From a bacterium (lineage in GTDB: Bacteria > Cyanobacteriota > Vampirovibrionia > Gastranaerophilales > JBAXKC01): 47,327 bases of DNA. This document shows positions 1 to 12,743 of this stretch, one piece after another; the stretch's first letter is position 1, and the number at the start of each line of letters is the position of its first letter. The stretch is from positions 1 through 47,327 of the forward strand of contig JBAXKC010000023.1 in assembly GCA_037137535.1 (NCBI GenBank), given 5' to 3'. The notes beneath the pieces were generated by a model, which saw nothing but the letters and a program-made list of their open reading frames with translations, did not search any database and was not told the DNA's origin. Both the position numbers and the translations under genes were made by a program.

Positions 1-51
1 TACATAGGAGTCACTAAGTTTTAAATAGGGGGATTTTTTGGGGGCATGTCA
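1..51. mobile_element. Probable terminal inverted repeat of an IS (IS3-family-like) extending left beyond the window
   Basis: Minus strand from 51 reads TGACATGCCCCCAAAAAATCCCCCTATTTAAAACTTAG, resembling IS3-family ends (5'-TG start, TGAxxTGCCCCC). It coincides with the abrupt stop of the 49..165 ORF. The partner end and transposase are not visible. Confidence 0.4.
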
Positions 52-165
52 GTTTTGCCAATCAAGATTTTCTTCTCGTACAAGCCAAGTTGTAAAATCA
101 TAAGCTTCGTGATTCCAGGCTTGCCTTAAATCTACTTGTTTTAGTTTTCCAAGTTTAATCGTCAT
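49..165 (-). pseudogene. Truncated N-terminus of a DUF4268-type protein (38 aa)
   Basis: Translated by hand: MTIKLGKLKQVDLRQAWNHEAYDFTTWLVREENLDWQN*. ATG is 1 nt after the hsdR stop. LGKL..VDLR..W.HEA.DFT.WL..EENL matches the N-terminus I recall for DUF4268-containing proteins, which are normally several hundred aa. Confidence 0.65.
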
Positions 166-166
166 C

Positions 167-3100
167 TTATATATCTCGTTCTGCATTTTCTACGTACTCT
201 GGAGAAAGAACCTCTGCCTGTTTTAAGACAAGTTGAATTGCAGCTTCGGTCTTATCTGGAGGATAATCATATTTTTTTAACAAGCGTTTAACTGTAATAC
301 GCATTTTAGCTCTAACGCTTTCTTTGACATTCCAGTCGATTATTTTTATGTTGTTTTGAATTGATTCAACTAGATCTCTGGCTATATGCTTTAATGTTTC
401 ATCTCCAAGCTCGGAGGCACTTTCATTTTGAACTAATGCATCGTAAAACGCCAGCTCATCCTCAACTAACCCTAGATCTTCACCTCTGGAATGAGCGTCT
501 TTCATTTCTTTTGCTAATTCTACAAGTTCAGCAATAATTTTTGCGGCTTCAATTGTTCTGCTTTGATATTTTTTAATTGTCATTGCTAATTTTTCGGCAA
601 ATGATGATTGTTGAACTACATTCTTTTTAAATTTTACTTTTATCTGATCATTTAAAAGTTTTTCCAATAATTCTAATGCAAGGTTTCTTTGCGGAAGCTT
701 TTCAACTTCTGTTAAAAACTCATCGGAAAGAATGGACAATTCAGGGCGTTGCAAGCCTGCCGCACTAAATATATCAATAACTTCATTTGAAGATACCGCT
801 TTTGAAACTAATTGTTTTAATGCTGTATCTAACTCATCTTTACTTTTACCTGTAACTACTGTGTTTTTTCTAATATTTGCACTTATCAATTGGAAAAATG
901 CAACTTCATCTCTAACATCGATAGTTTCAGGTTGTGGAACTGCAAGAGCGAATGCTTTTGACAATTCTGTAATTGCCTGTAAATAGCGTTCTTTTCCTTT
1001 ATCAAGACCAAGTATATGATCCATTGCAAAGATTGAACCGGACATCTGAACGTTAATATTTTCTTTTATATATTTGAAATAATCAAAGCCGTGAAGTAAA
1101 TCTTTAACAATTTCATACTTTTCAAGCATAACTGCTACTGCTTCTCGTTGATCAATACCTGCAATATTACGAGAACCCTCGGTATAATGAGATAAAGCCT
1201 TTTTTAGGTCTTCTGCAATTCCTAAATAATCAACAATAAGACCGCCTTCTTTGTCTTTGAATACTCTATTAACCCTTGCTATTGCTTGCATAAGGTTATG
1301 ACCACCCATAGGTTTATCAACATACATTGTATGTAAACAAGGAGCATCAAAGCCTGTTAGCCACATATCACGAACTATTATTAGTTTTAATTTGTCTTTA
1401 GGATTTTTAACACGCTTTTTGATATCTTCTTGTCTTGCTTTTCCTCTTATGTGTGGCTGAAATTTTTGAGGATCACTTGCAGAACCTGTCATTACAACTT
1501 TTATTGAACCTTCTTCATCTTTTTCATCGTGCCAGTCAGGACGAAGTTTTATAATTTCATTGTATAAATCAACACATATACGGCGACTCATACAAACAAT
1601 CATACCTTTGCCATCCATTGCTTCTGTTCGTTTTTCAAAATGTTCTACAATATCGTTAGCAATAAGAGAAAGTCGTTCCTCTGTTCCAACGGCTGCTTCT
1701 AGCCTTGACCATTTGCTTTTAAGTTTTTCTTTGTCGGATGATTCTTGGTCTTCTGTTATTTCTTCAAATTCTGTATCTAAAATATTTGACTCTTCCGCTC
1801 CAAGGTCAATTTTAGCCAAACGTGCTTCATAATAAATTTTTACTGTTGCACCGTCTTCAACGGCTCTTTCGATGTCATAAATATCAATATAATTACCGAA
1901 TACGGCTTGAGTGCTTTTATCTGTAAAATCAATCGGAGTTCCTGTAAAACCTATAAAAGAAGCATTAGGCAATCCATCTCTCATATGACGGGCAAATCCG
2001 TCTAAAAAGTCGTATTGGCTTCTATGAGCTTCATCGGTAATAACAACTATATTTCGTCTGTCTGATAATAAGCAGTAATCTCCGCCTTTAATTTCAGGGG
2101 CGAATTTTTGAATAGTTGTAAAAATAATTCCGCCTGAAGCTTTGTTTTGAAGAATTGTCTTTAAATCTTCTCGGGTTTCGGCTTGAACAGGTATTGTTCT
2201 TAATAAATCGGAAGAAAGTGAAAATGTATCAAAAAGCTGACTATCAAGATCATTTCTATCTGTCAGAATAATTAAAGTAGGATTTTCCATTTCGGGCTGT
2301 TTAACAAGTTTTCCTGAATAAAAAACCATTGATAAACTCTTGCCCGACCCTTGAGTATGCCAAATAACCCCTGCTCTTTTATCCCCTTGAGAGCCTGAAG
2401 CTTCAACAGTTTTTTTAATAGCTTTATTAACAGCGTGATACTGATGATATCCTGCGATTTTCTTGACTATGCTTTCACCGTCAACTTCATAGACAATAAA
2501 GTTTTGAATAAGGTCTAGCAGTCTGGTTTTATCAAACACTCCTTTTATCATTGCTTCAAGTTCAGGCATTCCTTTTGGAATAATGTCTGTTCCGTCAATT
2601 GTTCGCCAAGGCATAAAGCGTTCAAAATTTGCGGTTAAAGAACCCACTTTTCCGAATAAGCCGTCAGAAGCCAACAATAATTGATTATATGTAAATAAAG
2701 ACGGTATTTGAGCTTTATAGGTTTGAAGTTGATTAAATGCCTTTGCAATATCAGCATTTGCATCAGACGGATTTTTTAATTCAATAACTACAAACGGCAA
2801 ACCGTTAATAAATAAAATTATATCGGGTCTTCTATTATTTTTATTTTCAATAATTGTAAATTGATTAACCGCTAAAAACTCGTTATTATCAGGATTTGTA
2901 AAATCAACAGCCCAAACTTTGCCAAATCGGCTATTGTTTTCTTTGTCCCTGTATTCAACATCAATTCCTTCTGTTAAATATTTATGAAAAGTTCTGTTAT
3001 TCACAATCATACTAGGACTTTGAGGTATTGTTATTTTTCTGAATGCTTCTTGTATTGCATCATCGGGCATAGTTGGATTTATGCGGTAAAGGGAATCTTT

Positions 3101-3253
3101 AAGCCTATCATTTAAAACAACGTCAAAATAGCTCTCACGTTCAGAGTTTTCTCCGTCCGGTGCAATCTCAAGACCGTTTTTATAGTCATATCCCAGAGTT
3201 TGTAAAAGCTCTATTGTTGCTATCTCTAGTGCTGTTTCATTAATATTAATCAT
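167..3253 (-). CDS. hsdR: Type I restriction endonuclease subunit R
   Basis: 1028 aa; nuclease motif [20 protein letters not shown], Walker [13 protein letters not shown] box [28 protein letters not shown]. Confidence 0.97.
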
Positions 3254-4382
3254 ACTTATTAACTAATCCCTCATTTTCAAGACTCTTTATAATTCCTCTT
3301 AATATACTGCTGTTAAATAAATTAATTAAATATTTTCTACTATTAGCTTTCTCTCTTTGTAAAAGCTCTTCTTTTATCATTTTATTGATATAAGTATTTA
3401 ATTGTCTATCATTTTTATCTTTTAATATTACTTTTATATCTTTAATCATTATTAAATTATCTGTTTTTCTTAAAGATAACTCTAAAATTTTCTTTTCGTC
3501 ATTTGAAATTCTTCCTTTTTTCAATGAAGAATTTAATGCAGGAGTTAGAATTTTAGTTATGAAGAATTCTTTATCTAATAGTTTTTGAATTTTTTTTATT
3601 TCTAAAATAAGTCCACTTAAAACGTATTCACACCAATAAAGAAGATCCTCATCATTTCCGCTGTCCGCTTTTTCCAGATTATCAAAATATTTGCTTCTAT
3701 CAATGCAAAATATTGCTGATAAGTTCATTAAATCAGACATTCTATAGCCATATTGCCTTAACATAAAGTAGGTTAAAAGCCTTGACATACGACCGTTACC
3801 ATTATCAAAAGGATGAATCCAAGTAAATCTATGATGGGCAACAGCAATTTTTAAAGGTTTATTTTGAGTCTTTGTATCTTCGTTAATCCAGGCTATAAGT
3901 TCGTCCATATATTCTTGAACCATTATAGCCATTGGTGGAATATGATTGGCGTTTAATATTTTAACTTCGTTTTTTCTGTAATTACCAGGGGTTCTGCTTC
4001 CCTCACAGGTTAATCCTTGAGTAAGTATAGTATGTAATTCTTTTATTAAAACAGAAGTGATTTTTGTCTTTTTATCACTATGGAATACTTCGTCAATATA
4101 TTTTATGGCATTCTCAATATTGTCTATTTCTTCAATGCTTTGGTTTTTTGTATTATCAAATTTTGCTTCTACATAATCATCAAAAGTTGTTCTATTGCCT
4201 TCTATTCTTGCAGATTGTAAACTTTCAATCATATGAAAGATATCTTTTAATTGAAAAAATAAACAAGGATGAACCTCAAGATAGGGTCTTTCTCCTCTTA
4301 AAACTTCTAATCCTACTATCAGTTCTGTTATATTACTGTCAAAAGAAGGGGTTGGTATTGTTAAAGGAAAATATTCCGACAT
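3246..4382 (-). CDS. Fic family protein (intact catalytic motif, probable C-terminal winged helix)
   Basis: [12 protein letters not shown]ic motif; N-terminal SARIEGN inhibitory-helix motif; stop overlaps the hsdR start by 8 nt. Confidence 0.92.
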
Positions 4383-4400
4383 TTTATTTTACCATCTTGA

Positions 4401-4545
4401 TTTAATTATCTACATTAAGTTAATTAATTAACTACATTTGGATAATTTATTATCTACACAATATCCTTATAAAGTCAAACATATCAAAGGTTTTATCTTA
4501 AGCCCTGATGAAAAATATCTACATTATTAATAATTAATAAGTACA
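4401..4545. promoter_or_regulatory. Repeated and palindromic motifs upstream of fic-hsdR (candidate operator/promoter)
   Basis: TATCTACA at 4407, 4451 and 4516; perfect 16-bp palindrome AGTTAATTAATTAACT at 4418-4433. The region is very AT-rich. Confidence 0.4.
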
Positions 4546-4557
4546 AAAATCCAAACT

Positions 4558-6117
4558 TCACACCACACCCTCCAATATTTTCTCCGCCTCTCCAACCCTA
4601 ATTTCTCCCGAAATAAGTTTTGGAAGGAGTGAATCTCTTATGGTTGATAGCGTTTGGATTTTTAAATTGTTTTGTTCAATTAAAATATTAAAATCTTTAA
4701 ATAAATAATTTATTTTATCCATTAAAAGATAATTTGGTACTATTATTTTATAATTTTTTAATATATCTGTTTTTAGGTTTGTAAATACACTTCCACTTCC
4801 ATATGAAACAATTTTTTCTCTATTAAATAATAAATAATAATATAATAGTTCTTTGGTTATATTTTTATAATCACTAAAATACAACCAACCATCGTGTATA
4901 CAAGAATCAATTGATAAAAATTTAGGAATACCAGGTGTTGCACTATTTGATAAAATTAATGAGCCAGCTTTTATAAACCTTGTTTTATTAAGACCTTCTT
5001 TTTTTATACATTGATCTATTTTGTTTATAAACTTTGTAGAACTCGAGGTTGCATCAGAAATTTTTAACCAAGGTAATCCATCATCGCACAAAAAGTCATG
5101 AATAGGTCGTGGAGAACCTCCTCTTACAATTGTAGCCAATTCTTCAATTTTCTCTACCTTCCACCCCAACGGAATATCCCCCAACTCCGACTCTACAAAG
5201 CTATCAGGGAAGAGGTCGAGGATTTCTTGAGATAATCCTTTGATGGTTCGCCCATCGGCTTTAGCTTTTACTAGGTCAAAGTCCATAAACCAACTCTTAA
5301 AAACAGCCTGAGCCATATCTTCAAGGGTTTTGTTCATTTTGCGGTTGAGTTCGATTTTGTCGTCAAGAGCTCCGAGGATTTCGGCTATAGCTTTTTGTTC
5401 GGGTAGGGGGGGGATTTTAATTTTAATGCTATGTGCATAATCTCTATTTAGACCTGGCACCGCACTATCATTATTTATTTTCAGAGGTACTGTCTTTAAA
5501 AGATAATAGGTATAAAGTAAATTTCTTTTCTGTGGTTCATCTTCTATATAAAAAGATGTATCAATGGGATAAAAAGGTTCTTTTGAAAGATTAATACTAC
5601 CAATAGTCCCTTTTCTACCTATAATAATTCCTGAATTATCAACATAAGCCTTAGTATGTCTGCCAACAACCCCATTTGATCCATAAACAGGAACTTTTCC
5701 CTTTTTATCTCTATCTCTTTCAGGCAAACCTTTGCCATAAATAAAAGGGCTAAATTCACCCAATCTATATTCTGTCCACTCACTCGGAATATTTTTTTCA
5801 GCTTCCACAGATTGCAAAACAACATGCTCTTTTTTTATATTGTCATGAAACTGTTCCGGTACTTCATCCCATATAAATAAGTCTACCCTAAAAGGTAAGC
5901 TGCTTTCCTCAAAAGCTTCTTTTAAATTTGAAGCAGCTATTTTTTCTTCTTTAGATGCAAAAACAACCATATCTAAATCAGATTGAGGCTTAGATGTCCA
6001 TTTGACACGAGATCCATAAGCCCAAACTTCCGTATTAGGAATATATCTTTTTAGTAAATCTTTTATAATTTTTTGATAGTTAATGTCAACATCAATCTTT
6101 TTTGAAACATTGGTCAT
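4558..6117 (-). CDS. hsdS: Type I RM specificity subunit S with an N-terminal minimal nucleotidyltransferase (MNT) domain
   Basis: aa ~1-105: VWAYGSRVKWTSKPQSDLD (GSx10DxD) and LPFRVDL, typical of MNT. The remainder has two TRDs with conserved HsdS segments PPLPEQKAIAEILGALDDKIELN, ELGDIPLGWKV and LSTIRDSLLPKLISGEIRV. Confidence 0.93.
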   Translation of the reverse strand: MTNVSKKIDVDINYQKIIKDLLKRYIPNTEVWAYGSRVKWTSKPQSDLDMVVFASKEEKIAASNLKEAFEESSLPFRVDLFIWDEVPEQFHDNIKKEHVVLQSVEAEKNIPSEWTEYRLGEFSPFIYGKGLPERDRDKKGKVPVYGSNGVVGRHTKAYVDNSGIIIGRKGTIGSINLSKEPFYPIDTSFYIEDEPQKRNLLYTYYLLKTVPLKINNDSAVPGLNRDYAHSIKIKIPPLPEQKAIAEILGALDDKIELNRKMNKTLEDMAQAVFKSWFMDFDLVKAKADGRTIKGLSQEILDLFPDSFVESELGDIPLGWKVEKIEELATIVRGGSPRPIHDFLCDDGLPWLKISDATSSSTKFINKIDQCIKKEGLNKTRFIKAGSLILSNSATPGIPKFLSIDSCIHDGWLYFSDYKNITKELLYYYLLFNREKIVSYGSGSVFTNLKTDILKNYKIIVPNYLLMDKINYLFKDFNILIEQNNLKIQTLSTIRDSLLPKLISGEIRVGEAEKILEGVV

Positions 6118-6533
6118 TATTCCCAGCTTTCTCCACTTATTGTTTGATAAAGACCAATTGCATCATCAATAAAATCACCCATAAGCTCTAAAGCCGCTTG
6201 TGCTTTTTCTCCGCTATAATCGTGAGAAGTTCCAATTCTTGCATTTGCATAAGTTATCCATTGTTCTTCAGAAGAAGCAAATAAATTATTTTCAAAAGAA
6301 ATTCTAAATATAGGTTTAGGGCTATTAGGAACTTCAGGAAGCCCTAGTTCTTCGGTCAGGTATCTTTTAAGGATTTTCCACATACAATCATAACAAGTTT
6401 CAAAACGTTGAATAACAGATTCTTTTACAGCTTCTTCCATTAACTCTTCTAAATCTTCTCTAAGATTTTTATAATTTTCATATTGTAATTCAAGGTGTTT
6501 CAAAGCTCTTTTAAATTTATCGTATTCAATCAT
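6117..6533 (-). CDS. HEPN domain protein (HI0074-type 'nucleotidyltransferase substrate-binding' family), putative RNase toxin
   Basis: 138 aa, helical; ESVIQRFETCYDCMWK segment and R99-IGTS-H104-D-Y106 (Rx4HxY); stop overlaps the MNT-HsdS start (TAATG). Confidence 0.9.
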   Translation of the reverse strand: MIEYDKFKRALKHLELQYENYKNLREDLEELMEEAVKESVIQRFETCYDCMWKILKRYLTEELGLPEVPNSPKPIFRISFENNLFASSEEQWITYANARIGTSHDYSGEKAQAALELMGDFIDDAIGLYQTISGESWE

Positions 6534-6910
6534 TGTTTTACCTCATATCCTATTTCAAAGAGATTACATTTAATTTTTTCTTTTAATGCTTGATTTGCCC
6601 ATACTCTAAATTGAGTACCACGCAAGGATTTTACCCTGTAACCGACAGCAATAATATCGTCAAGATTATAATCTTTTACATCATAGTCTTTGTTATCTGT
6701 TGCAGTTATCCGGAATTTCCGGATGACTGAATCTTCAATTAATTCGCCTTCTTCAAAGATATTCTTCAGATGTTCGTTAATAGTTCTTACATCTTTTTGA
6801 AAAAGCGCTGAAATCTGTTTTTGTGACAACCAAGCCGTTTTATCTTCAATCTTTAGCTCAATTTTTGTTTTACCGTCTTCGGCTTGATAAATTATAATTT
6901 CGTTGTCCAT
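6530..6910 (-). pseudogene. rhuM: Truncated RhuM-family protein (N-terminal 126 aa, chimeric C-terminus)
   Basis: IIIYQAEDGKTKIE...WLSQKQISALFQKDVRTINEHLKNIFEEGEL...YNLDDIIAVGYRVKSLRGTQFRVWA is the RhuM N-terminus. Family members are usually ~330 aa. The last 16 residues resemble an HsdM C-terminus. The ORF may still be translated. Confidence 0.75.
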
Positions 6911-8466
6911 TACTTTACCATATAACCAATATGAGCGAGATTCTGTTTAATTCTTTCTTCCAATTCGTCAGATTGTTTAAATTGTTCTGATAATTGTTCA
7001 GCAAGTCTTGCCATTTTTTCTTCAAACGGTTCGCCGTCTTCTTCTTGCTCTTCAACTCCGACATAACGCCCAGGAGTCAGTACAAAATTATGTTTTTCAA
7101 TATCTTCTTTTGTCGCTGATTTACAAAAACCTGCTATATCTTGATATTTCGTTTCGTATTCATCACATTTCCAGTTATGATAGGTTTCGGCTATTTTTTT
7201 GATGTCTTCTTCCGTTAATTCTCTGTGAACTCTATCAACAAGAGTTCCCATTTTACGAGCATCAATAAATAAAGTTTCGCCTTCTCTATTTCTGAATTTT
7301 CCATCACCCGGAATATATCGAGCTTCTTTGTTTCGAGTTAAAAACCATAAACAAACAGGGATTTGTGTCGTATAAAATAATTGCCCCGGTAAAGCTACCA
7401 TACAATCTACAAGATCGTGCTCAACAAGGTTTTGTCTTATAACCCCTTCATTCGATGTATTAGAGCTCATAGAACCATTTGCAAGAACAAAACCTGCTGT
7501 TCCTGTCGGTGCTAAGTGATGAACAAAATGCTGAATCCAAGCATAGTTTGCATTTCCTGTCGGAGGCGTACCGTATTTCCAACGAATGTCTTCTTTAAGA
7601 TGTTCACCGCCCCAATCGCTAATATTGAATGGAGGATTTGCAATTATATAATCGGCTTTTAAATCTTTATGCAGGTCCCTACTGAATGAATCAGCATTTA
7701 CGCTGCCAATATTTGCTTCAATTCCTCTAATGGCAAGGTTCATTCTGCAAAGTTGCCAAGTTGTTGGATTTGATTCTTGCCCAAAAACAGATATATCGTT
7801 TAATCTTCCGCTATGCTCCAAAACAAAGTTTTCGCTTTGTACAAACATACCGCCCGAACCGCAGCAAGGGTCATAAACTCTGCCTTTGTAGGGCTCAAGC
7901 ATTTGTACAAGAAGTTTAACTATACATTGAGGAGTATAAAATTCTCCACCGTTCTTGCCTTCAGCAGCAGCGAATTTTCCTAAAAAGTATTCATAAACTC
8001 TGCCGAGAACGTCTTTTGATTTGTTTTCTTTATCAATAAGGCTTATTGAACCAATAAGATCAATAAGTTCACCCAATCTTCTTTTATCAAGAGTAGGTCT
8101 TGAATAATCTTTTCTTAATACACCTTTAAGTGTCGAGTTTTCTTTTTCAATTGAAATCATTGCGTTATCAATTAATTGTCCGATAGTGGATTGTTTGGCA
8201 TTGGCTTGTAATTCTTTCCAACGAGCTTCTTTAGGCACCCAGAAAATGTTTTCAGCTAAGTATTCGTCCTTGTCTTCTGCATAGTCAGCATCTTCTGCGA
8301 ATAATTGGTCATATTTTTCTTGAAAAGCATCAGAAATATATTTTAAAAAGATAAGCCCTAATACAACGTGCTTATATTCTCCAGCATCCATATTATTACG
8401 CATTTTATCCGCTGCTAGCCAAAGTTTATCTTCAAAGCCGCTATTAGCCCCTGTCGCCTGTGCCAT
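6910..8466 (-). CDS. hsdM: Type I RM N6-adenine methyltransferase subunit M
   Basis: 518 aa; GGEFYTP, motif [12 protein letters not shown], motif [18 protein letters not shown]. Confidence 0.97.
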
Positions 8467-8608
8467 ATTTCCACCTATTTTTATCTTTTCAGTTAAATTG
8501 ATTGTAGCAAAAAATAGTATATTTTATAGCATCTTGTTATATTAAATTTGACATATGCAACTAAATCTTGTTTTAGGATTCAATCAGTAATTGATGAAAT
8601 TTCGAATC

Positions 8609-9718
8609 TTATTCTCTGAAAATATTCAAATAATCTGCAAAAACAAAATACCTATTACGCTTAAACCCTGTTTTTTCTTTTAATATTCCGACCTCTACAA
8701 AATCTTTGACCAATTTATTACTGGCAGGAACAGAAATATCAAACGCTTTGCATACATCTTTTACGCTCAGTGTTGGCTTTGAATAAAGCAAGTTTAAAAA
8801 TTCAAAGCGTCGTTGGGATTTGTGCCTTATTGATTTAATTTTTACTTCGCAATCTTTTCTCAATTCAGTAAGTTTATTAAAAGTGCTAATACTACTTTGA
8901 GCAGTATCAATAACGCCTTTTAGAAAGGACTTTAGCCATTGTTCCAAATTATTAGAAGTTTTAACTAATGACAATGCATCATAATACGAACTTCTGTGCT
9001 TTTCAAAGAAGTCTGAAATATACAGGACAGGCTTATTTAACATTTTTCTTTCAACAAGATAAAGAATAATCAAAAGCCTTCCCACTCTGCCGTTGCCATC
9101 TAAAAATGGGTGTATCGTTTCAAATTGATAATGAGCGATACCAGCTTTAATTAAATTTGGAATTAATAAGTTGTCATTATGCAAAAACTTTTCTAAATCG
9201 GTTAAAAGTTCTGGCAAATCCGGTTGGCTCTGGTGGTATAAAATAAGCATCTTGCAGCCAATCCAGTTTACTTCACCAGGGCACTTGTTTTTGCCTCGTA
9301 CTCCTTGCATCAAAATATTATGAGAATCTTTTAATAGCCTTATTGATAAGGGTAATTTTTCTAATCCTTGAATTGTAGAGTTTAAAGCTAAAATATAATT
9401 TTGTACTTCCTGCCAATCGTATACACGTTCTGGAGAAATGTTGTCTTGAGATGATACAGCTTCATCAAAAGTAGTTTTAGTGCCTTCAATTCGGTTTGAT
9501 TTAGTTGCCTCTTTGATTGCATACATTTGAATAAAAAAATCAATATCAGGAATTAAATCAGAATAAGCCTTTAGTTTACCTATGCAAAAATTGGCATCTT
9601 GCAACAGCATATCAATTTAAGGAGTTTTTCACTCAAATTCAGTGTTAATCAATTAAGGAGTAAAAGGTTTGTACCCTTTATGAAGTTTGTATTCACTTGC
9701 TTTATATTGATTTGGCAT
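8609..9718 (-). pseudogene. Decayed Fic family gene (the annotated ORF 8609..9610 is the surviving part)
   Basis: HPFLDGNGRVGR motif and SNRIEGT present. An in-frame upstream ATG at 9718 (RBS-like AAGGGA) reads MPNQYKASEYKLHKGYKPFTP*LINTEFE*KTP*ID-MLLQ, with three stops. The family-like LQDAYFIPP segment is out of frame near 9225-9257. Confidence 0.8.
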
Positions 9719-9823
9719 TTTTTAAATTTCCCTTATTGGCAAAAACTTAATTATAAAATTATATAGTTAAGTTTTTGAATTCAAACTTAATTATGGAATA
9801 TTTGAAGTTAAGAAGCCATCTGG

Positions 9824-10285
9824 TTAAAAACATTTTTTAAGCGTAACTCTTATCATAGCTATTCGTACGATATTTTCTGCGGTTAAAGTCAATATTTCAT
9901 AGTCTTTTGAGGCTCTCCTGAAATTATTTATCCATGCAAAAGTTCTTTCAACTATCCATCTTTTAGGCAGAATCGCAAATGTATCTTTAATTTTCTTTGA
10001 TATATCAATCATTAGCTCAAGTGTGTTTTCTACATAATCTTTAGATGTGCCTCTATATCCTGCGTCTGCTGAAAATGCTAATATTGATGGGTATTTATCG
10101 GATATTGCCTGAAATATATTACAGCCTGCTTTTGTATCGTGAATATTTGCTGCATGGACTTGTACGTGTAATAAATTGCCCAAAATATCAACCACAATAT
10201 GTCGTTTTCTTCCTTTTACTTTTTTTTCCTCCGTCAATACCTCTTTCTCTACTATCATAGATGGTTTTAACACTTTGGGAATCAA
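9824..10285 (-). CDS. IS5-family transposase, C-terminal frame
   Basis: KKVKGRKRHIVVD, ADAGY, KRWIVERTFAW motifs; stop lies inside the terminal IR; the real reading joins from the upstream frame at the A8 run 10220-10227. Confidence 0.88.
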   Translation of the reverse strand: MIPKVLKPSMIVEKEVLTEEKKVKGRKRHIVVDILGNLLHVQVHAANIHDTKAGCNIFQAISDKYPSILAFSADAGYRGTSKDYVENTLELMIDISKKIKDTFAILPKRWIVERTFAWINNFRRASKDYEILTLTAENIVRIAMIRVTLKKCF

Positions 10286-10595
10286 CTATTGCATAACTTG
10301 GAGTTGCTTCTCTTTTTTCTTTTTCACGATGTTTTGTATTCAAAAAATCAAGGACTTTTTCCCATATTCCACGCTTACATAACCTGTTGTAATGATCATA
10401 TACTGTTTTACAGGGAGGAAAATCATTTGGCATCATTTCCCATTGGATTCCGCCTTTAACGACATAAAAAATTGCATTTACTATTGTTCTTTTATCGTGA
10501 TAGCCTTTACTTCCTCTGGGGTCTGGTCTTTCAAAAAAATGTTTTATCCCTTCCCATTCAGTATCGGTTAAATCACTTGGATAGCCTTTATTCAT
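10188..10595 (-). CDS. IS5-family transposase, N-terminal frame
   Basis: YPSDLTDTEW, IVNAIFY, W.MMP.DFPP..TVY, AIVDSQSVK motifs. Confidence 0.88.
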   Translation of the reverse strand: MNKGYPSDLTDTEWEGIKHFFERPDPRGSKGYHDKRTIVNAIFYVVKGGIQWEMMPNDFPPCKTVYDHYNRLCKRGIWEKVLDFLNTKHREKEKREATPSYAIVDSQSVKTIYDSRERGIDGGKKSKRKKTTYCG

Positions 10596-10796: not shown

Positions 10797-12743
10797 TTAA
10801 TTCCTTTTAAGGTACATTGCAATGATATTTGCAAAAGATTCTAAAAGTCGTTGTTGTTCAGAAGATAAAAATTCTTCTTGATTTATTGGAGTAAAACCAA
10901 GAACCCCAAAAGTAATTTCTTCTATTTTTAACGGCAAATAATGCCATTTAGCAGACGAAAGAGTTTGTGTATTTTTTCCTGCAATTAATCCGTTTTTATA
11001 TACCCAAACTGCAACAGCTTTTTCTTTTTCATTAAATTCACTACTTCCATGTTTTTCTATGATTTGTAGCTGATTATTTTCGTCAGGTAAAAGAATTACT
11101 ACATCAGACTGAAAAGCTTCTGAAATATGAGTTACGGCTTTATCCAAAATGTCTTCAAAATTATGAGCCGTCATTATTTCTCTACTGAATGAATATAAAG
11201 AGGATAAAAATCTTTCTCTATGTCTTGTACTTTCTGTTTGCCATCTGATTCCTTTGGAAAGCAAGCTTACAATAAGTGAAACAGTTATAAAGACAAAGAA
11301 ACTTGGTAAATATCTTATATCAGAAATCCTAAAAGTCAAAAAAGGAGGGATTAAAAAGAAATCAAAAGCAGCAACTGATATAAAAGTAGTAAATAAACCA
11401 ACTCTAGTTCCCCATAATATACTTCCGGCAATGACAGGCAGCAAGAGCAGCATGCCAATATTGAAAGGTTCAAGCCATGAACGAGAATACCATCCAAATG
11501 AAATTATTATGGTAACACTTAAAAGACAGATTAAATATGGTTTATAAGTGTTGCCATCTAATTTTGATACTTTTTCGGGTAAAGTTTTATGTCCATCATT
11601 ACCAACAATAAGAACATTTAATTGACCGCTTTTTCTTGTTAGGTCATTTAAAACAGAACCTTTAAAAATTTCTTCAACTCTAGAACGATGAGAAAGACCA
11701 GCTACAATTAAAGTAATATTTTTTTCTTTTGCAAAATTAATTATTTCATCCGCAATTATATTTCCGCTTAATGAAACGACTTTCGCACCAAGTTCTTCAG
11801 CCAGACGAATATTTTTATCAAGTTGATTTCTTGCTTTTTCATCAATTTCAAGTTGTTGTGGCGATTCTACATAGACGGCATACCATTCTGCATTCATATC
11901 AGAAGCCATTCTATGGGTTATCCTTAATAACCTTTCAGAAGTAGGACTTGTACTAAAACCGACTAACAGTCTTGAATTAACAGGCCATGGCGTTACAATA
12001 GAATAGCGCTGTTTATAAGAAAGCATATCGCAATCAACACGCTTTGCGGTATATCTTAATGACAATTCTCTTAATGCAAGTAAATTTCCTTTTCTGAAAA
12101 ACTTTTGCATTGCCTGCTTAGCTTTAGATGGAACATACACTTTTCCTTCTTGCAATCTCTCAAGTAATTTTTCGGGAGTTAAGTCGATAAGCTCTATTTC
12201 GTTTGCCATTTCTAAAATACTGTCAGGTACAGTTTCATGAATCGTTATATAGGATACTTGCTGAACAACATCAACCAAACTTTCAATATGTTGAATATTC
12301 AAAGTTGTATAAACATTAATTCCTGCCTTAATTAATTCTTCGACATCCTGATAACGTTTTTCATTTCTTGAACCGGGAATATTGGTATGAGCAAGCTCAT
12401 CCACTATGACTAATTCAGGCTTTAATTCAAGAATAGTATCAATATCCATTTCTTCTAAATCAAGACCGTTATATTTTATTTTTTTTCGAGGAATTATTTC
12501 TAATCCTTCCAGTAAAATTTGAGTTTCTTTACGTCCGTGAGTTTCAACAATTCCTATTACCGCATTAATTCCATTTTTTACTGCAATTTTTGTTTCTTCT
12601 AGCATGTGATAAGTTTTACCTACACCTGCACAGAATCCCAGAAAGATTTTCAAATGACCTTTAGTTGAACTAATTAAATTATTTTCATCTTCTTGGATTT
12701 TTTTTAAAATTTCTTCGGGGGTAGGTCTGTTATCATCTTGCAT
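10797..12743 (-). CDS. kdpD: KdpD-like sensor lacking the C-terminal histidine kinase domains
   Basis: KIFLGFCAGVGKTY, DELAHTN, KRYQDVEEL (KdpD domain), then a Usp domain, four TM helices and a GAF-like region; ends at 648 aa without SHDLRTPL or HATPase boxes. Confidence 0.9.
   Translation of the reverse strand: MQDDNRPTPEEILKKIQEDENNLISSTKGHLKIFLGFCAGVGKTYHMLEETKIAVKNGINAVIGIVETHGRKETQILLEGLEIIPRKKIKYNGLDLEEMDIDTILELKPELVIVDELAHTNIPGSRNEKRYQDVEELIKAGINVYTTLNIQHIESLVDVVQQVSYITIHETVPDSILEMANEIELIDLTPEKLLERLQEGKVYVPSKAKQAMQKFFRKGNLLALRELSLRYTAKRVDCDMLSYKQRYSIVTPWPVNSRLLVGFSTSPTSERLLRITHRMASDMNAEWYAVYVESPQQLEIDEKARNQLDKNIRLAEELGAKVVSLSGNIIADEIINFAKEKNITLIVAGLSHRSRVEEIFKGSVLNDLTRKSGQLNVLIVGNDGHKTLPEKVSKLDGNTYKPYLICLLSVTIIISFGWYSRSWLEPFNIGMLLLLPVIAGSILWGTRVGLFTTFISVAAFDFFLIPPFLTFRISDIRYLPSFFVFITVSLIVSLLSKGIRWQTESTRHRERFLSSLYSFSREIMTAHNFEDILDKAVTHISEAFQSDVVILLPDENNQLQIIEKHGSSEFNEKEKAVAVWVYKNGLIAGKNTQTLSSAKWHYLPLKIEEITFGVLGFTPINQEEFLSSEQQRLLESFANIIAMYLKRN

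Follow-up and report, generated by a model that had tools for sequence, protein, structure and literature searches.

A minimal nucleotidyltransferase domain, predicted to be the antitoxin of an adjacent HEPN protein, is fused to a type I restriction specificity subunit

Why would the specificity subunit of a type I restriction-modification (R-M) system carry at its N-terminus a domain that resembles the antitoxin of a HEPN ribonuclease? The question is raised by a locus in a 47,327-nt stretch of DNA (the window) from a Gastranaerophilales genome (contig JBAXKC010000023.1 of assembly GCA_037137535.1), in which hsdM, a fragment of rhuM, a HEPN gene, a fusion of a minimal nucleotidyltransferase (MNT) domain to HsdS, a Fic gene and hsdR follow one another on the minus strand (Table 1). 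A sequence-only reading had described a chain hsdM-rhuM'-HEPN-MNT::hsdS with translational coupling of the HEPN gene to the fusion, and the overlapping minus-strand ORFs bear out both points. The rhuM' ORF overlaps the HEPN gene by 4 nt and hsdM by 1 nt, while the HEPN and fusion ORFs have base 6117 in common (...GAATAATGACC...), so that the TAA stop of the one and the ATG start of the other overlap. The genes for hsdR and the Fic protein overlap by 8 nt. A scan of positions 1-10000 returned 45 promoter-like sites (41.8 +/- 6.7 expected) and 5 terminator-like sites (4.4 expected), and is uninformative. The locus is a complete type I R-M operon with an HI0074/HI0073-type HEPN-MNT pair captured between hsdM and hsdS. 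Since the putative antitoxin gene is fused in frame to hsdS, each specificity subunit carries one N-terminal MNT domain.

Table 1. Features of the type I R-M locus, with positions in the window
Feature	Position	Strand	Basis
hsdM, type I methyltransferase subunit, 518 aa	6910..8466	-	Pfam N6_Mtase E 8e-112, HsdM_N E 1.8e-25
rhuM' chimeric ORF, 126 aa	6530..6910	-	Pfam Virulence_RhuM, partial
HEPN gene, 138 aa, HI0074 family, predicted RNase toxin	6117..6533	-	PF08780, TIGR01987
MNT::HsdS fusion ORF, 519 aa	4558..6117	-	ORF list and Pfam
MNT (minimal nucleotidyltransferase) domain, fusion residues 1-102, predicted antitoxin	5812..6117	-	PF18765/PF01909
Linker, fusion residues 103-113, MNT to first target-recognition domain	5779..5811	-	AF2 low-confidence block
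HsdS proper, fusion residues 114-519, two target-recognition domains and two conserved helical regions	4558..5778	-	Methylase_S
Fic-domain gene, 378 aa, SoFic-like	3246..4382	-	Pfam Fic E 1.2e-19; PADLOC SoFic E 4.7e-50
hsdR, type I restriction subunit, 1028 aa	167..3253	-	HSDR_N, SWI2_SNF2, T1R_D3-like, T1RH-like_C domains

The domain calls made from the sequence alone (an MNT domain joined to an HsdS with two target-recognition domains, and a HEPN protein upstream) agree with Pfam, which places Polbeta/NTP_transf_2 at residues 16-102 of the fusion and finds two Methylase_S stretches in it (E 4e-34). The motif G35-S36-x10-D47-x-D49 lies exactly at the residues first given for it (5971-6015) and is followed by D79 (codon at 5881-5883). 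G35, S36, D47, D49 and D79 are invariant in all 36 sequences of alignment A1, and the motif is present in 144 of the 150 best representatives. Residues 7-106 align to residues 6-106 of HI0073 of Haemophilus influenzae (PDB 1NO5; phmmer E 1.9e-20), and Foldseek matches the domain to 1no5_A with a TMt of 0.89, an rmsd of 1.8 and 41% identity, to the MNT of a HEPN-MNT complex (8xeh_E) with a TMt of 0.81 and to 7bxo_E (HepT/MntA) with a TMt of 0.58; the phmmer E value to the Legionella pneumophila MNT is 0.31. Downstream, residues 111-513 match the PADLOC model Specificity_I (PDLC03099, E 8.7e-102), long helices span 238-278 and 463-503 in the AF2 model, and Foldseek recovers 1yf2_A at E 2.1e-24. 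Between the two parts, residues 101-110 form the sole internal block of low confidence in the model (mean pLDDT 64 vs 89.3 overall), and the linker varies in both length and sequence across the N-terminal alignment. With two target-recognition domains, the helical regions, and hsdM and hsdR on the same strand, the fusion has the domains and partners of an HsdS, and no other HsdS was found in the 2.95-Mb genome.

In the 138-aa HEPN protein, Pfam recognizes NTase_sub_bind alone (PF08780, E 3.9e-22; 79 bits against a cutoff of 31.8). The protein passes TIGR01987, "HI0074 family", at 56.7 bits (cutoff 55.8), and none of the PADLOC models matches it. The motif R99-x4-H104-x-Y106 (6216-6239) again sits precisely where the sequence-only reading had put it; R99, H104, D105 and Y106 are invariant in the 37 clean sequences of alignment A2, and in a 75-sequence set R99 and H104 are each kept in 71 and Y106 in 70. 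The AF2 model (pLDDT 94.3) finds its best structural match in the HEPN toxin of L. pneumophila (Foldseek TM 0.80-0.86; for the AMPylated form 8xdj, TM 0.80-0.84 and rmsd 2.0), to which the phmmer E value is 1.4e-3. TM values are 0.84 to HI0074 (1jog; sequence E 1.5e-6) and 0.69 to 7bxo_G (HepT/MntA). The catalytic residues being conserved, GS/DxD/D in the MNT domain and Rx4HxY in the HEPN protein, both partners look active.

To which family does the pair belong? It had been likened to HepT/MntA, an assignment that does not hold at the family level: the HEPN protein matches PF08780 and not PF01934 (DUF86), and the MNT domain fails the NCBIfam MntA equivalog NF047752 (29.5 against a cutoff of 60). 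On these profile scores the pair is placed in the HI0073/HI0074 (PF08780) family, a sister family, and no equivalog, of DUF86 HepT/MntA. The same families supply both partners in H. influenzae (PDB 1NO5, 1JOG; TIGR01987). The MNT domain resembles HI0073 in its length of about 100 aa and in lacking a long C-terminal helix, but HI0073 is a free 114-aa protein, whereas the domain forms the N-terminus of HsdS here. The H. influenzae pair has been described structurally as a two-protein nucleotidyltransferase, and toxicity data for it were not found in the accessible portions of the literature searched. The HepT/MntA systems of Shewanella oneidensis and Aphanizomenon flos-aquae (DUF86/PF01934) share the same logic, an Rx4HxY HEPN RNase neutralised by a GSx10DxD nucleotidyltransferase; unlike them, the window MNT has no alpha4 helix. 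The closest studied relative is the type VII toxin-antitoxin (TA) pair HEPN-MNT of L. pneumophila (Jin et al., 2024, PMC11586414; 8XDJ, 8XEH, 8XEO), with only about 20% sequence identity to the window pair. Its HEPN is reported to carry an RX4HXY motif in which Y105 is poly-AMPylated, and its MNT, also without the alpha4 helix, to bind as a single molecule to a HEPN tetramer (PMC11586414). A Q/E metal site is described there, and the window pair has Q42 and E45, each at least 90% conserved. The L. pneumophila pair consists of two genes and has no reported connection with restriction, a word that occurs 0 times in PMC11586414. Gene order also differs from the general pattern, the window having HEPN before MNT whereas MNT is 5' in most of the dyads described by Anantharaman et al. 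(PMC3710099).

Could the fusion be a product of assembly or sequencing? A missed stop or frameshift might join a separate MNT gene to hsdS in a metagenome-assembled genome, and this one is a draft in 81 contigs. The junction, for which the sequence-only reading had proposed a check in reads, is spanned by an independent Logan contig (9,833 nt, depth 32) that covers 4400-6700 with 0 differences and comes from the sequencing run from which the assembly was probably made; a contig from a second sample covers 5891-6590 only and stops short of the junction. The stronger case against a frameshift artefact is made by hundreds of distinct homologues with the same uninterrupted architecture, one being the 527-aa S subunit encoded by a complete plasmid of Zymomonas mobilis, and we give an artefact a negligible chance.

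How widespread is the architecture? Residues 1-150 of the fusion (MNT and junction) match 693 protein clusters of 285-909 aa, and 112 of the 120 clusters listed carry both an NTase family and PF01420. In a collection of one genome per species, 337 of 361 pattern stretches are relatives of the fusion. The best 80 of these 337 come from 20 named phyla; in 73 of the 80 loci the ORF with the MNT has a HEPN ORF abutting or overlapping it (a profile search counts two more, L002 and L054, as HEPN-adjacent), HsdM homologues are present in 77 and HsdR homologues in 59, and in about 7 the toxin is lost or broken while MNT::HsdS stays. The sequence-only reading had made its proposal depend on the architecture being no one-off, and these homologue and neighbour counts support it on that point: the MNT::HsdS fusion is confirmed as real and recurrent, with HEPN as its neighbour.

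Seen from the toxin side, the picture is more varied. In a HEPN-seeded sample (the best 80 of roughly 400 metagenome loci), MNT lies directly downstream in all 80 closest relatives, yet 29 of the 69 decided loci have a standalone MNT with the same HEPN clade, and at least 10 of the standalone pairs lie far from any hsdM or hsdS. Where hsdM or hsdS is nearby, 40 are fused and 3 split. R-M operons thus favour the fusion, the predicted antitoxin in them being nearly always part of HsdS, but the pair can do without it. On the HEPN tree the fused forms are intermingled with the standalone ones, and the 13 state changes (at least 4 forced by starred branches) indicate that the two states interconvert; cheap frameshifts at overlapping genes could explain this. 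Divergence of HEPN follows that of MNT (Spearman 0.62) more closely than that of HsdM (0.34) in a comparison that is descriptive only, and mean p-distances are 0.69 within the HsdS part and 0.37 within MNT. HEPN also comes first in all five standalone pairs examined in related genomes. A long MNT-bearing frame was found in 0 of 40 same-order genomes searched, which have standalone MNTs only (93-134 aa, at most 37% identity). As to carriage by phages, tblastn against 50,697 phage records gave no match, and relatives made up 0 of 49 pattern stretches in an IMG/VR scan.

What might the fusion achieve? We consider somewhat probable a joint explanation in which a HEPN-MNT pair was captured by the operon, its MNT became fused to HsdS, control is exerted by AMPylation and release of the toxin is tied to HsdS. 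By analogy with the characterised type VII relatives, HEPN would be an RNase toxin and the MNT domain would neutralise it by AMPylating Tyr106 beside the Rx4H site, by holding HEPN oligomers, or both. The antitoxin would then have no existence apart from HsdS, and the M2S or R2M2S core would set how much of it there is, how stable it is and where it lies. Freshly synthesised HEPN would go unneutralised, and growth would arrest, whenever HsdS was no longer supplied or intact: when a phage shuts off host expression, for instance, when the restriction complex is attacked, or when the operon is lost or replaced. Such an arrest might act as a second-line (abortive) defence, hinder the loss of a type I system that would not be addictive by itself, or both. 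Type VII neutralisation is a covalent modification, and toxin that has already been modified would stay inactive after the antitoxin is gone, which weakens a simple model of release upon HsdS loss. In a fused MNT-HEPN protein, the MNT domain is reported to be rapidly degraded when isolated and to be stabilised by fusion (PMC13000451). Alternatively, though this is a tentative idea that we hold to be doubtful, the complex itself may be both scaffold and sensor of the HEPN RNase: the type I complex would hold HEPN oligomers and be the site of their AMPylation, and a phage block, DNA mimicry, degradation or a stop in synthesis would let unmodified HEPN accumulate and abort the infection.

It is possible that the fusion has no such role. 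An ordinary selfish or stabilising TA pair may have landed between hsdM and hsdS as a hitch-hiker; with the stop of MNT overlapping the start of hsdS, small indels would fuse the genes again and again, a change that is tolerated, with no sensing of the restriction enzyme and no effect on HsdS. Free-standing pairs within the same HEPN clade, the interleaved labels on the tree, the decay of the toxin in some loci and the frequency of TA and other defence genes in R-M operons (PMC5499597; Payne et al. preprint) would all be expected under this explanation, as would a split operon on an Acetobacter plasmid, in which MNT and hsdS overlap by 8 nt. However, a neutral and easily reversible state should leave more split forms than the 3 seen beside 40 fused ones in R-M context, and the fusion has been kept through extensive swapping of target-recognition domains, as the p-distances show, and across the 20 phyla, with invariant NTase residues. 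We regard an incidental fusion as unlikely, while taking it seriously.

A further explanation dispenses with the TA pair altogether: HEPN and MNT would form a two-subunit nucleotidyltransferase that, tethered to HsdS, regulates or extends restriction by nucleotidylating something else, perhaps a subunit of the restriction enzyme, DNA ends or a protein of the phage. The name of PF08780 (NTase substrate-binding subunit) and the PDB titles of HI0073/HI0074 point in this direction, and HEPN domains are known to have been exapted as substrate-binding domains of NTases (Anantharaman et al., PMC3710099). Yet exapted HEPN domains typically lose Rx4-6H according to the same source, whereas R99 and H104 are invariant here, as is the acceptor Y106; among homologues that have been studied, the nearest form a toxin-antitoxin pair with an AMPylating antitoxin (PMC11586414), and the same pair as in the window also occurs alone, away from R-M genes. 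These points make a non-toxic enzyme improbable, and a captured toxin under HsdS-linked control is the reading that we carry forward.

A precedent for such control is PrrC, the anticodon nuclease that EcoprrI, a type Ic enzyme, keeps latent until a phage anti-restriction factor releases it. Likewise a HEPN-superfamily RNase encoded within a type I R-M operon, it follows the same proposed logic, that of a suicide RNase governed by the restriction complex (PMC3506569, PMC3632139). PrrC is described as having an N-terminal ABC ATPase, lying between hsdS and hsdR and being silenced non-covalently, whereas the window HEPN is a minimal 138-aa protein without an ABC-type NTPase, encoded between hsdM and hsdS, and its predicted silencer is an enzyme domain built covalently into HsdS. 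That R-M operons harbour genes for defence and TA systems is a general phenomenon (Payne et al., 2024, preprint 10.1101/2024.01.29.577857; Matelska et al., 2017, PMC5499597), and the window locus likewise holds a RhuM/PDC-S05 remnant and a SoFic-like gene recognized by PADLOC. The genes treated in those accounts are separate ones, in contrast to the TA component placed here inside an R-M subunit polypeptide. Matelska et al. (PMC5499597) state that TA and R-M systems had not, as of 2017, been shown to interact directly.

Both arrangements occur in plasmids annotated only with "restriction endonuclease subunit S" and "nucleotidyltransferase", for which a functional study was not found in the literature. 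The Acetobacter sp. AC2005 plasmid NZ_CP149626.1 has the split form, hsdM-HEPN-MNT-hsdS-hsdR with all genes overlapping. Plasmid pZMOB01 of the cultured Z. mobilis ATCC 10988 (NC_017180.1) has the fused one, with hsdM, an HI0074-family HEPN, the S subunit with its N-terminal MNT, and hsdR. Identity of the two to the window MNT region is only about 33-40%. In Z. mobilis ZM4, hsdSp of pZM32, deleted by Lal et al. (2021, PMC8432527), appeared to be a candidate of the fused type when a skipped gene number suggested a HEPN gene between hsdM and hsdS; this lead was ruled out, ZMOp32x028 being 1,122 nt long (374 aa) and x027 lying on the opposite strand (Yang et al., 2018, Table S1). As HsdSp is not of the fused type, its viable deletion is uninformative on MNT::HsdS. 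The sequence-only reading knew of no characterised MNT::HsdS fusion, and our literature search likewise found neither a paper describing one nor an experiment on any fused member; nor did methylome or restriction data turn up for this genome or for a fused member.

A predicted antitoxin thus lies literally inside the R-M specificity subunit of hundreds of species. If the complex is indeed scaffold and sensor of the RNase, type I restriction would have a built-in and widespread "guard", carried by at least several hundred species, and the coupling of immunity to suicide would gain a direct physical example. The hypothesis of immunity-suicide coupling gains a simple and genetically tractable test system, with natural fused, split and free-standing forms of one toxin clade, known catalytic residues in both partners and a cultured carrier in Z. 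mobilis ATCC 10988 (pZMOB01). In annotation, the fusion proteins go by the sole label "restriction endonuclease subunit S" and, since the HEPN partner has no PADLOC model, finders of defence systems miss the module.

The surroundings of the pair are less constant than the pair itself. The Fic gene occupies a variable cargo slot between hsdS and hsdR, which in related loci holds many different defence genes; across these loci the slot is highly variable, whereas the HEPN-MNT::hsdS junction is fixed. On the other side of the pair, rhuM' had been counted as a member of the chain but is a recombination scar and no component of the system. Its ORF joins the N-terminal third of a RhuM/PDC-S05 gene to the 3' end (~14 codons) of a second hsdM, with the scar at about 6531-6582. 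The matches cover only profile positions 1-56 of 252 for Virulence_RhuM (Pfam) and the first ~115 of ~330 for PDC-S05 (PADLOC). The C-terminal tail matches the conserved C-terminal motif of HsdM, and local alignment of 6531-6582 with 6908-6959 finds about 38 of 52 bases identical.

The locus in the window is a predicted type VII-like toxin-antitoxin (TA) system embedded in a type I restriction-modification (R-M) operon, with the putative antitoxin fused to the specificity (S) subunit. The hsdM gene and the 126-aa, 138-aa and 519-aa ORFs overlap successively by 1, 4 and 1 nt, while a 175-nt gap separates the 519-aa ORF from the 378-aa ORF downstream. As the sequence-only reading had it, a single ORF of 519 aa joins an MNT domain to a two-part HsdS, with a Pfam nucleotidyltransferase match followed by two Methylase_S stretches, and the HEPN gene is translationally coupled to it: the HEPN stop and the MNT::HsdS start overlap by 1 nt in the TAATG at 6117. 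The residue numbers assigned to the MNT (G35, S36, D47, D49) and to HEPN (R99, H104, Y106) are all correct in the alignments.

Genes of the R-M operon carrying the HEPN-MNT module
Feature	Position	Strand	Basis and content
hsdM	8466-6910	minus	ORF chain
rhuM' ORF, 126 aa	6910-6530	minus	RhuM family match to the first 56 of 252 profile positions only (Pfam)
HEPN ORF, 138 aa	6533-6117	minus	NTase_sub_bind (PF08780); curated HI0074 family model passed (Pfam, NCBIfam)
MNT::HsdS ORF, 519 aa	6117-4558	minus	Pol-beta-type minimal nucleotidyltransferase, residues 16-102, then two Methylase_S stretches (Pfam)
Fic ORF, 378 aa	4382-3246	minus	SoFic-like (PADLOC SoFic, E 4.7e-50); hsdS-hsdR cargo slot
hsdR	3253-167	minus	ORF chain

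By sequence, the MNT domain is closely related to HI0073, which it matches over the whole chain (phmmer E 1.9e-20). An AF2 model of the fusion (pLDDT 89.3) superposes on 1no5_A with TMt 0.89 and rmsd 1.8, the HsdS remainder resembles S subunits of known structure (1yf2_A, E 2.1e-24), and low confidence is limited to the linker (residues 101-110, mean pLDDT 64). HEPN is modelled as a bundle of five helices (pLDDT 94.3), and the best matches of this model are the AMPylated HEPN toxin of L. pneumophila (8xdj, TM 0.80-0.84) and HI0074 (1jog, 0.84). The L. pneumophila MNT, like that of the window, lacks the alpha4 helix. Shewanella HepT is a more distant match (7bxo_G, TM 0.69), and the window MNT fails the NCBIfam MntA equivalog model (score 29.5, cutoff 60). 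This places the module beside the HepT/MntA type VII family, as its sister, and not inside it.

Is the fusion genuine? A Logan contig (9,833 nt, depth 32) matches window positions 4400-6700 with no differences, its run being the probable source of the assembly and not an independent sample. From the same study, a contig of a second sample spans 5891-6590 and stops short of the MNT/HsdS junction. It is the comparative evidence that is decisive. With residues 1-150 as query, taking in the MNT, the linker and the beginning of TRD1, 693 clusters reach E <= 1e-3 among 918 candidates in a search limited to proteins of 285-909 aa; among the 120 of these clusters listed, 112 combine an NTase family with PF01420, six carry PF01420 only and two NTase only. 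An exhaustive search with the MNT domain alone finds 2,883 representatives at E <= 1e-3 (65 at E <= 1e-30), and 99 of the best 150 are at least 400 aa long. Furthermore, a pattern scan across 185,579 species, each represented by a single genome, returns 361 stretches, 337 of which encode relatives of the fusion. The architecture is recurrent and not a one-off, and the best 80 of the 337 relatives cover 20 named phyla.

The predicted association with an adjacent HEPN gene is borne out in these best 80 loci: in 73 of them, the HEPN ORF runs up to or into the start of the MNT-bearing ORF, and a profile finds HEPN adjoining MNT in two more (L002 and L054). HsdM homologues occur in 77 and HsdR homologues in 59. 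Catalytic residues are intact on both partners of this conserved architecture, in which HEPN-MNT adjacency is obligatory. R99 and H104 are each kept in 71/75 and Y106 in 70/75 sequences (74 locus HEPNs plus the window), R99, H104, Y106 and D105 are invariant in 37 clean HEPN sequences, and the NTase residues G35, S36, D47, D49 and D79 are invariant in 36/36 fusions. The stop/start overlap is conserved as well, with an ATG 10 nt before the HEPN stop in 39/70 loci; at this position the window has CTG, and its MNT::HsdS ORF begins at the ATG sharing 1 nt with the stop.

No MNT or nucleotidyltransferase domain fused to HsdS is described in the literature searched in full text, in keeping with the earlier statement that no characterised fusion of this kind is known, although the supplements of Payne and Anantharaman might list it. 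All co-mentions of 'hsdS' with HEPN or MNT that were examined are strain genotypes. NT-associated HEPN genes are reported, in the text available, to cluster with R-M operons and to include fusions to methylase domains (Anantharaman et al., 2013, PMC3710099), and the main text of that paper, as far as accessible, contains no occurrence of HsdS or 'S subunit'. The fusion is likewise unmentioned in the accessible portions of Makarova et al. (2009, 2012, 2013), a 2026 BREX survey, Matelska et al. (2017, PMC5499597) and the preprint of Payne et al. (2024, 10.1101/2024.01.29.577857). The fused proteins are already in databases, named 'restriction endonuclease subunit S' by NCBI, and the match to one PADLOC Specificity_I model (residues 8-506) extends over the MNT part. 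What is new is therefore that the architecture is recognized and interpreted; the sequences themselves are not.

Since the pattern scan was seeded with the fusion, a second scan of metagenome contigs was seeded with the HEPN alignment. It yielded 521 stretches with 408 relatives, of which the best 80 (62-78% identical) were kept; an MNT directly follows HEPN in all 80. When fused is defined as an MNT frame running on for at least 150 residues, 40 are fused, 29 have a standalone MNT and 11 lie on contigs ending too early to decide. The same toxin clade therefore occurs both as a free two-gene system and embedded in R-M operons. Upstream of the 40 fused loci, hsdM is present in 36, the upstream stretch being too short to tell in four. 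Three standalone MNTs lie between hsdM and hsdS, among them the metagenome locus L139, which has the look of a frameshifted fusion; hsdM and hsdS are both absent for at least 1.5 kb around ten others, and the contigs of the remainder are too short to judge. Among these 80 loci, 43 cases inside R-M operons could thus be decided, and in 40 of them the antitoxin is fused. On a tree of 151 HEPN sequences (excluding L002, L006, L038, L046, L054, L060, L078 and any HEPN below 110 aa), the fused and standalone labels require 13 changes, at least four of them forced by well-supported branches, against a mean of 26.4 for shuffled labels (0/500 shuffles as low as 13), indicating that on this tree the fused label is clustered, yet not monophyletic. 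An Acetobacter plasmid carries the split form hsdM-HEPN-MNT-hsdS-hsdR, each gene overlapping the next, with MNT and hsdS as separate genes where the window has one ORF. The fused form is found on the complete plasmid pZMOB01 of Zymomonas mobilis ATCC 10988, which encodes hsdM, an HI0074-family HEPN, an S subunit of 527 aa that resembles the window MNT at its N-terminus, and hsdR. The hsdSp deletion of Z. mobilis ZM4 was set aside as evidence on the fused type, its S subunit being an ordinary one of 374 aa. In 5/5 standalone pairs from genomes of the order to which the window belongs, HEPN precedes MNT, so that loss of the MNT stop codon is enough to give the fused layout.

Why would an antitoxin be carried on a specificity subunit? 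In the available text on L. pneumophila, HEPN is an RNase, its RX4HXY Tyr105 is a target of poly-AMPylation by the MNT, each HEPN tetramer is bound by one MNT molecule, and oligomerization also limits toxicity (PMC11586414). For single-chain MNT-HEPN fusions, a 2026 study reports, in its accessible part, that isolated MNT is rapidly degraded and is stabilized by fusion (PMC13000451). With one MNT per HsdS, the dose, stability and location of the antitoxin would be those of the R-M core, and newly made HEPN would escape neutralization should the supply or integrity of HsdS fail. We infer from this a simple model in which HsdS failure would set HEPN free; against it, neutralization in type VII systems is covalent, and working split and free forms exist. 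The fusion may instead be neutral, a tolerated hitch-hiker and nothing more, but fusions exceed split forms 40:3 inside R-M operons. On this analysis, the module may serve as a back-up defence, as an addiction element, or merely be tolerated.

The HEPN/MNT::hsdS junction is fixed, in contrast to the hsdS-hsdR slot, which exceeds 400 nt in 50/59 loci and holds very varied cargo: reverse transcriptases, SIR2, AAA_21 with DUF4276, Schlafen/AlbA_2, Abi_C, Fic, RhuM, DUF1828/1829, KAP NTPases and TIR domains. HEPN pairwise distances correlate most strongly with those of MNT (Spearman 0.62), ahead of HsdM (0.34) and the HsdS part (0.22), a descriptive measure as pairs are not independent; the mean p-distance is 0.69 for the HsdS part versus 0.37 for MNT. 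In the window, two SoFic-like Fic genes flank the module, the one in the cargo slot and another upstream of hsdM (8609-9610, PADLOC SoFic E 4.8e-99). Fic proteins are AMPylators themselves. Homologues of the cargo-slot gene occur in only 5/80 related loci.

The window's genome (2.95 Mb, 81 contigs, the window being one whole contig) has one HsdS only and one HI0074-type HEPN only. The absence of the fused form from 40/40 same-order genomes searched, the chromosomal housekeeping genes on the remainder of the contig and an IS5-family transposase beside the island, split over two overlapping ORFs (9824-10595), point to acquisition of the fused locus by horizontal transfer. The rhuM' ORF is a chimera of the N-terminal third of a RhuM/PDC-S05 gene and the 3'-terminal ~14 codons of a second hsdM: it ends in the conserved HsdM C-terminal motif, and 6531-6582 aligns with the true hsdM end at 6908-6959. 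From this recombination footprint, the HEPN-MNT::hsdS block evidently brought along the end of its own hsdM when it entered an hsdM-rhuM locus by recombination. In agreement with this, the most frequent arrangement in other loci has hsdM no more than 150 nt from HEPN (27/72 loci). A kdpD ORF (10797-12743) with KdpD, Usp, DUF4118 and GAF domains lacks the histidine-kinase domains and ends ~200 nt from the transposase; it may have been cut by insertion of the IS or the island.

Several variants occur among the relatives. In 19-20 of the 80 loci (L007:6320-6565, L028:3657-3902, L080:6318-6563 and about 16 more), a conserved ~81-aa ORF with no Pfam match separates hsdM from HEPN, where it fills the usual ~270-nt gap; the window lacks this ORF, which may be a third component in some versions of the module. 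In L008, L011 and L033, HEPN is reduced to short 3' remnants just upstream of position 7000 beside an intact MNT::hsdS, remnants that mark the toxin as deleted and the antitoxin fusion as retained. HEPN copies are truncated or frameshifted in L006, L038, L060 and L078. Tandem MNT-MNT-HsdS proteins are also found (representatives P0002 and P0024, and L046:6929-8971), and an additional domain is inserted between the two target-recognition domains in P0037 (DUF559/MTES_1575 endonuclease, residues 320-425) and P0070 (GIY-YIG, residues 355-422). Finally, in L071:5694-7007, L054:6589-7342 and L002:6057-7432, an additional MNT or a further standalone HEPN-MNT pair stands directly before the fused gene, which suggests tandem duplication of the module.
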